IMG/VR virus record: IMGVR_UViG_2671180896_000002
Source: a virus
Lineage: Duplodnaviria; Heunggongvirae; Uroviricota; Caudoviricetes
DNA length: 47,890 nt
Direction: 5' to 3' (one strand)
Below the pieces are notes generated by a model, which saw nothing but the letters and a program-made list of their open reading frames with translations, was not told where the DNA came from and searched no databases. The position numbers and the translations under genes were made by a program. Within the stretch, counting starts at the first letter, position 1; every line of letters begins with the position of its first letter. Below, one piece after another: positions 32,971-41,660 of the stretch.

Positions 32971-34029
32971 ATGAGTTTCCTTTCTGAACAAGACGTACAA
33001 AATTTAGTCATTAATAAAATGATCTTTCACGTTGTAGGTAAGAATCTTGAAGCACCGACACTTCTCAAAGAAATAAAACCAGTTCAGCATGTGGATTTTT
33101 TTCTTGAACGTATCAAATCTTCACTGAAAGGAAATCTTTTCACTTTTCTGGAGAATTCAAATACCGAAAGAATCCTGCGTATCATTAGAGATAAAGCAGA
33201 TGCTGAAGCTAATTGTTTTACAGAACAATCGAAGCTACTGGCCAGTGATTTTCAGTCACACCATTCTAGCGGTAACACGAGTATGGGATGCTTTTTCTTA
33301 TTTGAATTGGTTTCAGATAAGGAAAAATTATATGCAATTATAAAATACGATAATGAAGATGTGGTTCGTTATGTTCTTGACGAAAAGTTATCTGAAGAAC
33401 AAATGCCTACTTTAGAAAGATTTCATGAAACTTTCGTAAAAAAAGCTGAGGCAATGCAAAAAATAGCGTTAATTCAACTTGATCCAAGTGGGAAAGGCGG
33501 GAAAGTTATTGTAAAAGACAGGAGTAAAAGAACCAATATTTCAGGATATTTTAAAGGCTTCTTAAATGTTAAAAGAGTCAACTCTGAAATTGAACTTTGC
33601 AATAAGCTTATTGATGCGCTGAAAATAACCTTCAAAAGGCATAAAGAATTATTACCAGAGTCAATTCAAAAAAGCGGCGTAAATAAAATATATGAAGTTT
33701 TAAGCAGAGCTGATTTCGAATATAATCCTGAAGATGCTTCTCCGTTATTGACCAGCATTTTTGGGCCGTTAGATGAAAAATCACCAATTCTCAACACATT
33801 CAAAACTCAAACAAAAAATGCTGGTATTGAAGGCGAATCCTTTACTGTAAAAGCAGATGGCATTCATAAACCACCAAGACGAAAAATTGAAACTGCAGAA
33901 AGTGTAGTAATTAGTTATAATGAAGATGACCGTCCAGAAATAAGAAACTTAGATGATGGGCGAAAACAAATTATTGTTACTACTGCGAGGATTATTACTG
34001 ATGACATCGATACTTCAAAAAATCGATGA
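32971..34029 (+). CDS. NdpA/YejK (NA37)-like nucleoid-associated-protein-family protein, 352 aa
   Basis: ATG with GGAG SD; motifs NKMIFHVVGKN, MGCFFLFELVSDKEKLYAIIKYD and ISGYFKGFLNVKRV parallel YejK motifs (ALHQLIK, GGFVLFCHYRYLAVEYLL, YLTFLKGRVGRKV) as recalled; AT-rich gene on the strand opposite to flanking phage genes. Confidence 0.55.
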   Translation: MSFLSEQDVQNLVINKMIFHVVGKNLEAPTLLKEIKPVQHVDFFLERIKSSLKGNLFTFLENSNTERILRIIRDKADAEANCFTEQSKLLASDFQSHHSSGNTSMGCFFLFELVSDKEKLYAIIKYDNEDVVRYVLDEKLSEEQMPTLERFHETFVKKAEAMQKIALIQLDPSGKGGKVIVKDRSKRTNISGYFKGFLNVKRVNSEIELCNKLIDALKITFKRHKELLPESIQKSGVNKIYEVLSRADFEYNPEDASPLLTSIFGPLDEKSPILNTFKTQTKNAGIEGESFTVKADGIHKPPRRKIETAESVVISYNEDDRPEIRNLDDGRKQIIVTTARIITDDIDTSKNR

Positions 34030-38896: not shown

Positions 38897-38909
38897 TTGT
38901 TTTCACCTT

Positions 38910-38928
38910 GTAACGCTCGCAGCGTTAC
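38910..38928. repeat. 19-bp palindrome GTAACGC-TCGCA-GCGTTAC (copy 3 of 3)
   Basis: Same arms, 14 bp upstream of the ydaU-like start codon in the ydaT-ydaU intergenic region. Confidence 0.8.
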
Positions 38929-38973
38929 ATTTAACTGATACCGAACAAAACAGTTCGGTACGATTAATTTCAA

Positions 38974-39396
38974 TCAATGCACTACGACAGAATCGCTAGG
39001 AGAACCGCCGCCGCTGAAATGTGCTTTACGGTAAACGGCCTGGACTGCATCATCATGCGCATCAATTGCCGTACTCAGTGCATCCTGTGCCGCCAGTAAT
39101 GCACGGCGTTCCAGGGTATCGAAGATGCAGAGTCGGTGACGCAGCTCGCGAGGAAGAATTGCCAGAACCGCAGGGATCAGTTTCTGAATTTTTTCCCTTT
39201 GCGCATTCGTTTCACCTTTCAACCAACGATGATAGATATTCTGCTGATTGTTCCAGTCCTTGCCTGGTACCAGGGGCAATTCGCCGCCCCCCTGGCGCAG
39301 ATATTCTTCAGTAATTGCGTTAGCGACCCACGCCTGCCCTTTTTCGGCTGCCAGGGCTAACAACACTGATTCGATGTGCTCATGCTTGATTTTCAT
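38974..39396 (-). CDS. ydaT: YdaT-like protein (Rac immunity-region protein, reported toxic partner of YdaS)
   Basis: 140-aa ORF, 4-nt overlap with the upstream Cro-like gene; size and position match Rac YdaT. Confidence 0.6.
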   Translation of the reverse strand: MKIKHEHIESVLLALAAEKGQAWVANAITEEYLRQGGGELPLVPGKDWNNQQNIYHRWLKGETNAQREKIQKLIPAVLAILPRELRHRLCIFDTLERRALLAAQDALSTAIDAHDDAVQAVYRKAHFSGGGSPSDSVVVH

Positions 39397-39647
39397 GAAT
39401 CAACTCCCATCAGCTTTTTCGTAGTAGTTTTATTTCTGCCAATAGTTAAAATTGCATCGGCAGAAAATAATCCGTTTGATGCATGAGCGATTTTTTCAGC
39501 GTAATTTGTTTCGCCGGTATATTCTGTGCGAGGCAATTTTCCGTTATCCATCCATTTGTAGATTGCTCTTTGGCTGACACCACAAACGTCGGCCACAACA
39601 GAAACGCGAACAGTTTTGATTACATCTTCAAGTGTTTTCTGGTTCAT
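39393..39647 (-). CDS. ydaS: Cro/YdaS-like HTH regulator
   Basis: 84 aa from MNQKTLEDVIKTVRVSVVADVCGVSQRAIYKWMDNGKLP (HTH) with GAGGGTG SD (supplied ORF extends to 39719); divergent from the racR-like gene. Confidence 0.6.
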   Translation of the reverse strand: MNQKTLEDVIKTVRVSVVADVCGVSQRAIYKWMDNGKLPRTEYTGETNYAEKIAHASNGLFSADAILTIGRNKTTTKKLMGVDS

Positions 39648-39726
39648 ATCACCCTCACAATGTGAACTTTGAGTACATGCTATAACAGAACTGACAGTAC
39701 ATTCAAGAGCGAATATCATTGAACTT
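39648..39726. promoter_or_regulatory. OR-like divergent promoter/operator region between ydaS and racR
   Basis: Plus strand CTGACA(39691-39696)-17 bp-TATCAT(39714-39719) ending 7 nt before the racR ATG (leaderless, cI/PRM-like); minus-strand TTGAAT-16 bp-TATAGC toward ydaS; AGTACAT motif at 39672-39678 and 39696-39702 overlapping promoter elements. Confidence 0.5.
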
Positions 39727-40146
39727 ATGGTTCATGAAGATAAAGCGCGTAAAGAGTTCGCCAGTAGGCTTGCGCTAGCCTGTGAAAACGCTGGTTATGA
39801 ACAACATGGAAGGCAGGCAGAAATTGCCCGTCGAATGAAATTAACACCAAAAGCGGTTAGCAAATGGTTTAATGGTGAAACAATTCCTCGCCGAGAGAAA
39901 TTAAGGGAATTAGCAACACTCATTGGAACAACACCAACCTATCTTTTGGGAGAGGATACAGAAGAAAGTGGACAGATACGTTTCTATCAGGAGTTAAATC
40001 CAAGACAAAAAATCATCATTGACCTTCTGGACGAGCTCCCTGACAGTGAGACAGATGAACTTTTAAAAACTCTTGAGGAGAAAAAACAGAAGTACAATGC
40101 AATTTACGAAGAGTTAGCACGAAAGAAAAAACAAAAAGCCTCTTAA
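39727..40146 (+). CDS. racR: Prophage repressor, RacR-like (HTH; no obvious C-terminal peptidase domain)
   Basis: 139-aa ORF with HTH (RQAEIARRMKLTPKAVSKWFNGETIP), divergent from the cro-like gene, no SD; position equivalent to Rac racR. Confidence 0.6.
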   Translation: MVHEDKARKEFASRLALACENAGYEQHGRQAEIARRMKLTPKAVSKWFNGETIPRREKLRELATLIGTTPTYLLGEDTEESGQIRFYQELNPRQKIIIDLLDELPDSETDELLKTLEEKKQKYNAIYEELARKKKQKAS

Positions 40147-40214
40147 ACCAGCATAAATCCGGTAGCGTCCCCCTCCGGGTTTGTGCTTCACTTTATCCCG
40201 TCTCATTTTTTTAT

Positions 40215-40270
40215 ACATAAAATGTACTTAAAGTACTTTACAACGATGAACACAAAGTACATTATATACC
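40215..40270 (+). promoter_or_regulatory. OL/pL-like promoter-operator region for the early-left operon
   Basis: TTTACA(40237-40242)-17 bp-CATTAT(40260-40265) on plus strand; the operator motif recurs here as ATGTACT (40222-40228, inverted), AGTACTT (40232-40238) and AGTACAT (40256-40262). Confidence 0.45.
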
Positions 40271-40433
40271 TACCAACCCACCCCGCCCCACAGAACGCCG
40301 GGCAATACTTCGAGTTACCAGGCAGTGGTCAGGGGTTAAGTAGCCAGCCCGAGGCGTATGAACATGACGGCGGGATTCAAATTTTGCAGTGCAGCAGTTA
40401 GTTCCGCCACCCGGCGTTAAGGGGATAGATAAG

Positions 40434-40568
40434 ATGGTGCATTACGAAGTAGTTCAGTATTTGATGGATTGTTGCGGTATCACTTACAACCAGGCTGTGC
40501 AGGCTTTACGCAGCAACGACTGGGATCTCTGGCAGGCAGAAGTCGCTATACGTAGCAACAAGATGTGA
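40434..40568 (+). CDS. ydaG: Small Rac early protein YdaG (44 aa)
   Basis: Below the track cutoff: MVHYEVVQYLMDCCGITYNQAVQALRSNDWDLWQAEVAIRSNKM; first gene after the pL-like promoter. Confidence 0.7.
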   Translation: MVHYEVVQYLMDCCGITYNQAVQALRSNDWDLWQAEVAIRSNKM

Positions 40569-40578
40569 GGTTCGCAAA

Positions 40579-40734
40579 ATGCAAAAAATCGACCTCGGCA
40601 ACAACGAATCCCTGGTGTGCGGCGTGTTCCCCAACCAGGATGGAACGTTCACTGCCATGACGTATACCAAAAGCAAAACATTTAAAACCGAAACTGGTGC
40701 GCGCCGATGGTTGGAGAAGCACACAGTAAGCTAA
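40579..40734 (+). CDS. ydaF: Small Rac early protein YdaF (51 aa)
   Basis: Below the track cutoff: MQKIDLGNNESLVCGVFPNQDGTFTAMTYTKSKTFKTETGARRWLEKHTVS; stop overlaps the convergent sieB stop. Confidence 0.7.
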   Translation: MQKIDLGNNESLVCGVFPNQDGTFTAMTYTKSKTFKTETGARRWLEKHTVS

Positions 40735-41219
40735 CGATTAAAACGTCTACTCCTGCTGTTCCAGAATAACTTCATAAAATGGGAGTATTTTTCGGTGACG
40801 AGATAATAAGAACAGTTTGCGCTATCACTCTGATGTTGAATGATGCCCTTCCGTTCTAATTTTTTCATAACCGGGTTACGGCAAGGAGAAGTGATAATAA
40901 GATTTCCTGTTTTAAGGAAATCTTTAAATACAGCGATTTCTTTCTCAGATAAACGAAGCAATACTCGTTGCTCTGGCAGTAATGAATAATGCTTTTGAAT
41001 ATGTGCTCGCAATCTTGAGAAGGAAATGGCGACCACGAAAGAAAAGGCAAAAACGATAATCTGAAAGAGCCAAGGTATTTCAGTATAAGCATTGAATGCG
41101 ACAGTAAACTCTTTCGGTATCAGCCAGAGAGTGAGACCAAAAATGATAATCGTATACATAAGTCTTTCGAGTGGCTCGTTAGCAAAAAGTTTCAACAATG
41201 GAGTAAATACATCCAACAT
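40731..41219 (-). CDS. sieB: Superinfection exclusion protein B
   Basis: 162 aa from MLDVFTPLLKLFANEPLERLMYTIIIFGLTLWLIPKEF... with two N-terminal TM helices (supplied ORF extends to 41342); opposite strand within the early operon as in Rac/lambda. Confidence 0.8.
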   Translation of the reverse strand: MLDVFTPLLKLFANEPLERLMYTIIIFGLTLWLIPKEFTVAFNAYTEIPWLFQIIVFAFSFVVAISFSRLRAHIQKHYSLLPEQRVLLRLSEKEIAVFKDFLKTGNLIITSPCRNPVMKKLERKGIIQHQSDSANCSYYLVTEKYSHFMKLFWNSRSRRFNR

Positions 41220-41660
41220 ATCAATAACTCTCAACTGTAAGGGTATTGAAATGTTAACACAAGCTCTCGCTGTAGGGGTATAGCCGAGACCACCGAAGCC
41301 CGGAGGTGGTGAAATAAAACCGGGCACAACACGAAGGCGCATTTCCGATATCCATAAAGAGTCGGTCTTGTCTGTTAAATTTAAATGGTGGGAGTGCGCC
41401 TCCGGTTGTAAATAACGACATTGCTGTGTGTAGTCCTGGCGGCATCAGTTTTTTTCTTGAAGTTCGGCTGATGTCCGCCCTTTTTAAAGTGAATTTTGTG
41501 ATGCGGTGAATGCGGCTAAGCGCACGTGGCACAGTTAAAAGTCATGTTAGTCCTTATTGGTTTGGGTGGGAAAGCCGACTGTAATTGTTAACTGGTTGCA
41601 GTCACCTGGAGGCACCAGGCACCGCATCAACAAAGTTCATTTGTAAAAATGGAGATAATT

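Follow-up and report, generated by a model that had tools for sequence, protein, structure and literature searches.

Which genetic switch governs immunity in a Rac-like prophage whose repressor is not RacR? The 47,890-nt stretch of DNA in virus record IMGVR_UViG_2671180896_000002, here called the window, represents a Rac-like lambdoid prophage of E. coli that is almost complete. An earlier note, made from the letters alone, described in it an immunity region resembling the right and left operator regions (OR and OL) of phage lambda, with one operator motif on both sides of a repressor gene. This description is backed by homology to the immunity region of phage HK022. Taken as a whole, the results are best explained if positions ~39403-40270 are the immunity cassette of a Rac-like lambdoid prophage with a genetic switch of the HK022 type, a reading to which we give a probability of about 85%.

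Homology to the HK022 immunity region

A distant DNA search of phage records revealed ~70% identity of Cro, OR and the N-terminal part of the repressor to phages HK022, HK75 and O276. The HK022 record (X16093.1) annotates oR1, the -10 element of the rightward promoter pR, oR2, the pR -35 element and oR3, which spans the cI ATG, as well as two oL sites that alternate with the -35 and -10 elements of the leftward promoter pL. HK75 and O276 are annotated likewise. In the alignment, each of these features falls on the corresponding feature of the window. The operator consensus is common to HK022 and the window, as are the operator spacings (24 and 33 bp in OR, 24 bp in OL), an operator across the repressor ATG (oR3 in HK022, O3 in the window) and the positions of the pR and pL hexamers.

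At the protein level, the product of the cro-like gene is 62% identical to HK022 Cro over 73 amino acids (E=1e-34), and the first ~75 residues of the repressor match HK022 CI (BLASTP 46/99, E=9e-32). The recognition-helix motif TPKA(V/I)SKWFNGE (T40, P41, K42, A43, S45, K46, W47, F48, N49, G50 and E51) was invariant across the relatives examined. In contrast, HK022 CI has a C-terminal S24 peptidase domain, whereas the window repressor has a helical domain of ~60 amino acids instead. The adjoining operons differ as well: pL is followed by a Rac leader and ydaG/ydaF in the window and by putL and nun in HK022, while cro is followed by ydaT in the window and by putR and cII in HK022. According to PMC8053113, which cites Carlson and Little (1993), HK022 CI binds adjacent operators cooperatively and loops OL to OR. 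A literature search on the regulation of the repressor maintenance promoter (PRM) of HK022 found nothing usable.

The repressor gene (139 amino acids, HTH_3) occupies positions 39727-40146 on the plus strand and combines an N-terminal helix-turn-helix domain of the HK022-CI type with a DicA-like helical C-terminal domain. The divergent cro-like gene (39393-39647, minus strand) encodes the helix-turn-helix HK022 Cro homologue of 84 amino acids and has the same start in RefSeq. Direct reading identified its Shine-Dalgarno sequence, GAGGGTG, at 39650-39656 (minus strand), and a putative ribosome binding site is annotated at the corresponding position in HK022. The repressor open reading frame opens with the ATG at 39727, and no in-frame start lies upstream. 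As the earlier note had stated, this ATG has no Shine-Dalgarno sequence: direct reading found nothing GGAGG-like or purine-rich upstream of it.

Start calls vary among related records. In phage Tritos, cro is called with 108 amino acids and starts inside OR (L013 4001-4327), compared with 84 amino acids in RefSeq, and one Salmonella record (L004 3001-3456) starts the repressor 13 codons 5' of the conserved ATGGTTCA. Judging from the HK022 alignment, the short cro and the conserved repressor ATG are the probable starts.

Operators and promoters of the cassette

The four copies of the 7-mer AGTACAT that had been reported to flank the repressor gene are indeed present, at 39672-39678 (+), 39696-39702 (+), 40222-40228 (-) and 40256-40262 (+). 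Over the entire 47.9 kb, AGTACAT or its complement occurs five times versus 3.6 times expected, and 30 of 100 shuffles reach five copies. Because this window-wide count is unremarkable, clustering was tested separately, with the number of copies of the most frequent 7-mer (both strands) in the non-coding stretches 39648-39726 and 40147-40270 as the statistic. Four copies of any 7-mer were found in only 21 of 5000 dinucleotide shuffles, which agrees with the earlier judgement that the clustering is unlikely to be due to chance.

Repeat finding placed the 7-mers within direct repeats of 19-22 nt, spaced by 24 bp, that flank the repressor gene on either side. When all half-sites and spacers were searched de novo for dyads, GWACT-N3 was selected (shuffles 2/300 and 7/300). 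AGTACAT is the half-site of a 17-bp dyad, ATGWACT-N3-AGTWCAT, that is present in five copies. This 7+3+7 form replaced an earlier form of the dyad, TGWAC-N5-GTWCA, since the de novo search preferred an N3 centre. The one 7-mer copy on the opposite strand is oriented in this way because it is the left half of operator OL1. The fifth site, O3, lies over the repressor ATG and was absent from the earlier list.

Three of the operators lie in OR. O1 (GTGAACTTTGAGTACAT, 39662-39678), the equivalent of HK022 oR1, covers the predicted pR start. O2 (CAGAACTGACAGTACAT, 39686-39702), equivalent to oR2 and 24 bp from O1, occupies the pR spacer and covers the PRM -35 element. O3 (TTGAACTTATGGTTCAT, 39719-39735), equivalent to oR3, follows 33 bp from O2; its 15-bp core is perfectly palindromic, with the A of the repressor ATG at the centre. 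In OL, OL1 (ATGTACTTAAAGTACTT, 40222-40238) overlaps the upstream edge of the pL -35 element and aligns with an annotated HK022 oL site, and OL2 (ATGAACACAAAGTACAT, 40246-40262), 24 bp from OL1, falls in the pL spacer, overlapping the pL -10 element.

A position weight matrix (PWM) was built exclusively from the five GenBank-annotated HK022 operators (X16093.1). Its top five matches in the 47.9 kb, at 39720, 39663, 40223, 39687 and 40247, are these five sites. A broader operator matrix returned the same five sites, with a clear gap before the sixth. O3 was the best match of both matrices, and O1 had rank 2-3. One exact match to TGAAC-N5-GTACA elsewhere (32985-32999), 14 nt into an open reading frame and 6.7 kb from OR, scored low with both matrices and is probably a chance occurrence.

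Conservation was studied in 11 distinct OR sequences from Escherichia, Salmonella, Raoultella, phages and metagenomes. The protein search revealed full-length relatives of the repressor in Salmonella (62-65% identity), as well as relatives in Raoultella, Klebsiella and metagenomes that join the same N-terminal domain to Peptidase_S24, i.e. classical CI. The triad of O1, O2 and O3 was present in all 11 loci, with an O1-to-O3 offset of exactly 57 bp. In total, 22 of the 25 half-site columns were invariant (mean column identity 97%), including all of the O1 half-sites, compared with 12 of 22 columns in promoter hexamers outside the half-sites (86%), none of the seven columns in operator centres (69%) and one of 26 in other non-coding DNA (63%). 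The centre of O1 varies freely, whereas the TGA in the centre of O2 is invariant, an exception in keeping with the proposed switch, in which TGA is the core of the PRM -35 element. The alignment further showed a conserved OL/pL block of ~50 bp with unrelated DNA on either side. Wherever the contig allows, the OL pair is found 24 bp apart downstream of the repressor, even with intervening genes.

A near-consensus promoter had been proposed for the repressor gene, and it is present as CTGACA-17-TATCAT (39691-39719, plus strand), which scores 10/12 and ends 7 nt (TGAACTT) before the ATG. In all 11 loci, its -35 element (CTGACA, 39691-39696, from the promoter scan) keeps the TGA of the O2 centre, and TAnnnT is found at the same distance from the ATG as its -10 element (TATCAT, 39714-39719). 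The repressor mRNA would be leaderless, with the predicted PRM start at the A of the ATG. The divergent cro promoter of the earlier note also stands: on the minus strand, TTGAAT-16-TATAGC lies in the columns annotated as pR -35 and -10 in HK022. Its -35 element TTGAAT (39701-39706) corresponds to TTGACT in HK022, with an invariant TTG, and its -10 element TATAGC (39679-39684), preceded by TGT, corresponds to CATAAT. On the other side of the repressor gene, the promoter scan found pL (TTTACA-17-CATTAT, 40237-40265, plus strand; score 9/12), which reads TTTACA-17-CATCAT in HK022. The -35 element TTTACA (40237-40242) is identical to the annotated one, and the -10 element CATTAT (40260-40265) differs at a single base.

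The proposal that each 7-mer overlaps a -35 or -10 element held for two of the four copies, namely 39696-39702, on both -35 elements of OR, and 40256-40262, on the pL -10. It did not hold for the other two: the copy at 39672-39678 adjoins the pR -10, and that at 40222-40228 sits 8 nt upstream of the pL -35. When the whole 17-bp operators are considered, four of the five touch a promoter hexamer, and O3 follows immediately on the PRM -10 and spans the predicted PRM start.

In one metagenomic locus with a repressor 89% identical to that of the window, the pR -10 is changed from GCTATA to ACATAC (plus strand; L014 1058-1063) while the operators are all intact. The pR of this locus may have decayed or shifted.

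Relation to Rac prophages and competing explanations

The Rac prophage of E. coli K-12 is collinear with the window on both flanks of the cassette. Identity to K-12 ends on the left at a binding box for YdaT (window ~39402), the left junction of the cassette, and resumes on the right at ACCCACCCCGCCCC, 10-11 nt after the pL -10 element, which puts the right junction at ~40264-40275. K-12 Rac and the window share the same backbone, the same cassette junctions (YdaT box and pL start), OR dyads with N3 centres of which one lies over the repressor ATG, and two further dyads at a downstream promoter. In contrast, their repressors and Cro-like proteins are unrelated and their operator sequences differ. 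The names racR and ydaS-like, which the two cassette genes had been given, were not upheld and are corrected here. BLASTP similarity to RacR covers only 33 amino acids of the helix-turn-helix, the NCBIfam model NF049929 gave no match (versus 244.6 bits on K-12 RacR), and the cro product has no meaningful similarity to K-12 YdaS.

In K-12, OR contains four copies of the dyad TAGGC-N3-GCCTA, the last of them over the racR ATG, and two more copies lie 25 bp apart round a TTGACA-17-TATAGT promoter downstream of racR. No copy of this dyad was found in OR or OL of the window. Hence, in OR as well as in OL, a different repressor goes with a different operator word, the behaviour expected of an operator. 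The two prophages provide a clean case of modular exchange of an immunity cassette, with flanks shared to the base and unrelated sets of repressor, Cro and operators.

Precedents come from two studied relatives. In K-12 Rac, O3 of the three inverted repeats spans the ATG, and the main promoter PracR3 is leaderless according to primer extension (PMC9638921). In CP-933P of E. coli O157:H7, the paaR2 mRNA is leaderless by 5' RACE and N-terminal sequencing, and divergent PR/PRM promoters and a PL are combined with matching operators (PMC8630535). CP-933P and the window both have a repressor without an S24 domain and YdaT as the CII equivalent. However, the CP-933P operators are repeats of the GTTTAGTAA type in four inverted repeats, its spacer measures 97 bp, and it has a toxin-antitoxin pair downstream of the repressor, which the window lacks.

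The ydaT gene of the window (CII-like; 38974-39396, minus strand) adjoins the cassette. The YdaT box, TTGATT-TTCATG-AATCAA (39386-39403), extends over both the cro stop and the ydaT ATG and forms the left border of the cassette. The K-12 box reads ATGATT-n6-AATCAA (PMC11879457), and the box of the window exactly matches the CP-933P site TTGATT-N6-AATCAA (PMC9986795). A second copy with one mismatch (ACGATTAATTTCAATCAA, 38960-38977) overlies the ydaT stop at a distance of 426 bp. YdaT has been reported as a tetramer able to bridge two sites.

A stretch of 1342 bases round the cassette has 99.8% identity with a part of E. coli O157:H7 strain 86-24 where ydaT, ydaV, sieB, kilR, recET, xisR and intR are the flanking genes. 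The same stretch was found, with at least 80% coverage, in 645 of 5426 complete E. coli genomes. The results provide a map of the control region of a prophage widely carried by E. coli, including O157:H7, with five operators, three promoters, a CII-like box and the cassette borders. HK022, lambda, K-12 Rac and CP-933P all provide earlier examples of this architecture, and the current view of phage switches is unchanged. The allele with its S24-less repressor appears to be unstudied: no paper describing it turned up, although no search was aimed at the allele itself.

Two alternative explanations question the identity of the switch or the role of its operators. A RacR/YdaS/YdaT switch of the K-12 type, with a RacR-type repressor on its own operators, would fit the Rac-like backbone (intR, xisR, recET, kilR, sieB and ydaF), a YdaT that is 94% identical to K-12 YdaT, and the similar K-12 architecture of three OR dyads, the third over the ATG (PMC9638921). 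However, the likeness to RacR is limited to the 33 amino acids mentioned above, the RacR family model does not match, the Cro-like protein is unrelated to YdaS and the RacR dyad is absent from the cassette. Membership of the RacR family is already refuted, and we regard a switch of this type as very improbable. The repeated 7-mer might also have arisen by chance or from the composition of AT-rich promoter DNA and have no role in protein binding; its window-wide abundance is not above expectation, and GTAC words are plausible in AT-rich spacers. Yet the clustering is rare, the five sites are the top five of another phage's operator matrix, the half-sites are near-invariant in 11 diverged loci where their neighbours vary, and the motif changes with the repressor. 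The probability of the chance explanation is close to negligible.

A third explanation accepts the sites and promoters as real and takes the module to be a relic whose repressor only silences toxic early genes, as RacR does in K-12, and does not operate as a functional switch between lysis and lysogeny. The main repressor transcript would start not at a leaderless PRM but at another promoter, for instance a YdaT-activated one inside cro. The Rac-type prophages of K-12 and CP-933P are cryptic (PMC8630535 and PMC5700373). In K-12, racR is served by additional promoters, among them a YdaT-dependent reverse promoter inside ydaS (PMC11879457), and the window contains a perfect YdaT box. Moreover, the PRM -35 is overlapped by O2, and both an S24 domain in the repressor and a LexA box in the window are lacking. 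On the other hand, the same cassette occurs in isolated phages, at 99.9% identity in vB_EcoS-666R9 and relatives and at 97.6% in Tritos. The PRM -10 and -35 bases are conserved in each of the 11 loci, with a constant distance to the ATG, a promoter scan of 38900-39730 found no other promoter, and a transcript from further upstream would still have no ribosome binding site at the ATG. We consider the relic explanation unlikely.

Several points weigh against the HK022-type switch itself. HK022 and HK75 have a third left operator (OL3, 53 bp upstream of the OL pair in HK022; also present in Raoultella L006) and a far-right operator downstream of cro, and neither HK022 operator has a PWM counterpart in the window. 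The pR hexamers TTGAAT and TATAGC are only moderate, and a consensus scan at a threshold of 9/12 omits pR. The leaderless repressor mRNA is a prediction from geometry and from the precedents in relatives. The C-terminal domain is unlike that of HK022 CI, and the cooperativity and looping of HK022 CI may not transfer to the window repressor. Finally, the position of O2 on the PRM -35 raises the question of how the repressor would stay expressed when O1 and O2 are cooperatively filled.

The repressor and the proposed switch

Pfam assigned only helix-turn-helix families to the repressor, and the S24 part is missing in the alignment. AlphaFold predicts an all-helical protein (mean predicted local distance difference test score, pLDDT, 83.6), with a five-helix DNA-binding domain, a less confident linker and a C-terminal part of three helices, of which the last is long (106-138). 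An exhaustive search with residues 76-139 yielded 37 clusters (50% identity level; E<=0.001), and in all of them the match is at or near the C-terminal end. The complete proteins among them are small, with varied helix-turn-helix N-terminal domains. The motif LxPRQKIxxxLxxELPDSExDxLLKTLEEKKxxY (window 39952-40143) marks a portable C-terminal module for which there is no Pfam family. K-12 RacR may carry a very distant version of this module.

The NCBIfam DicA model NF007257 aligns to residues 29-137 with 56.4 bits, below its cut-off of 101. DicA, from the Qin prophage, shares with the window repressor an HTH_3 domain and a C-terminal LPxSE...LEEKK helical module. They differ in that the DNA-binding domain of the window repressor is of the HK022 type and in their operators. 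The repressor looks like an HK022-type head on a DicA-type tail. A PDB sequence search and Foldseek on the AlphaFold model gave only generic HTH_3 domains and left the C-terminal domain unexplained; the best full-length Foldseek resemblance was EspR-like (template modelling, TM, score 0.58). No LexA box (CTGT-N8-ACAG) was found anywhere in the 47.9-kb window, and hence there is no obvious SOS-controlled antirepressor.

The combination of an HK022-type head and operators with a non-cleavable DicA-like tail raises questions about cooperativity and induction. We tentatively propose, as a possibility that is less probable than its opposite, that the repressor is a natural chimera of an HK022-CI DNA-binding domain and a DicA-type tail, with 24-bp OR and OL pairs unchanged from phages with S24 repressors. 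If so, two unrelated oligomerisation modules could drive the same cooperative, looping operator geometry. The carriers, ~12% of complete E. coli genomes including O157:H7, would then have SOS-insensitive immunity against HK022-type phages, and the repressor would turn on its own gene by promoter competition between the interdigitated pR and PRM rather than by contact with RNA polymerase.

In the HK022-type switch proposed here, a repressor dimer would bind the five 17-bp dyads ATGWACT-N3-AGTWCAT. The predicted starts are ~39672 for pR, ~40272 for pL and the ATG at 39727 for PRM. Relative to the predicted pR start, O1 would be centred at +3 and O2 at -22, where it fills the pR spacer; relative to the predicted pL start, OL2 would be centred at -18 and OL1 at -42. 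O1 and O2 would thereby occupy the start and spacer of the rightward lytic promoter pR, which is expected to drive cro, ydaT and the replication genes, and OL1 and OL2 would occupy the -35 edge, spacer and -10 of pL. Judging from these positions, filling both operator pairs would silence both lytic operons. Binding is presumably cooperative within each 24-bp pair, and looping between OR and OL over ~560 bp is possible.

The promoters pR and PRM interdigitate, with each -35 element in the other's spacer and predicted starts ~55 bp apart, so that RNA polymerase cannot occupy both at once. Filling of O1 would remove the competing polymerase from pR and free PRM. At higher repressor levels, O2 (centre -33) and O3 (centre +1) would shut PRM, with net negative autoregulation as the expected outcome. 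The Cro homologue is expected to act on the same sites, and a CII-like protein at the YdaT box (39386-39403) would establish repressor synthesis.

In lambda, the operators are also 17-bp dyads, with a cooperative pair 24 bp apart from centre to centre, three OR sites and a matching OL set. Lambda cI starts at the first base of its transcript, and OR2 activates PRM from -42. Despite this shared plan, the window has no significant sequence similarity to lambda. The pR and PRM starts are ~82 bp apart in lambda and ~55 bp apart in the window, lambda has three OL sites versus two, and the window repressor has no S24 domain. The centre of O2 (39694) lies at -33 from 39727 and covers the PRM -35 element, not near -42. 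Lambda-style activation therefore does not follow from the geometry of the window.

On the 3' side of the repressor gene, the window carries a 44-amino-acid ydaG-like gene and ydaF on the plus strand and sieB on the minus strand. The leader of the leftward operon (40271-40433, plus strand), which precedes the ydaG-like gene and then ydaF, is shared with K-12 Rac. This leader of ~160 nt between pL and the ydaG-like gene is 85-99% conserved in more than 3000 E. coli genomes, including K-12 Rac, often without an annotated feature. HK022 has the putL antitermination RNA at this position. In the window, an Rfam search of 39300-41400 (E<=1) gave no match, and hence no put-like or other known RNA downstream of pL; the fold of 40272-40436 was no better than that of shuffles (z=-1.4).

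The slot between the repressor gene and OL/pL is empty in the window and filled in several relatives. It holds a HigB/HigA toxin-antitoxin pair in Salmonella (L003 3553-4220, L004 3588-4255), a 480-amino-acid AAA_15/AAA_21 ATPase in Raoultella (L006 3808-5250) and paaA2-parE2 in CP-933P. A terminator scan from the repressor gene of the window to pL found no intrinsic terminator. By eye, AAATCCGG...CCGGGTTT at 40155-40182, just after the repressor stop, form a putative 8-bp hairpin with a 12-nt loop, which the scan did not report and which might be a weak terminator before pL.

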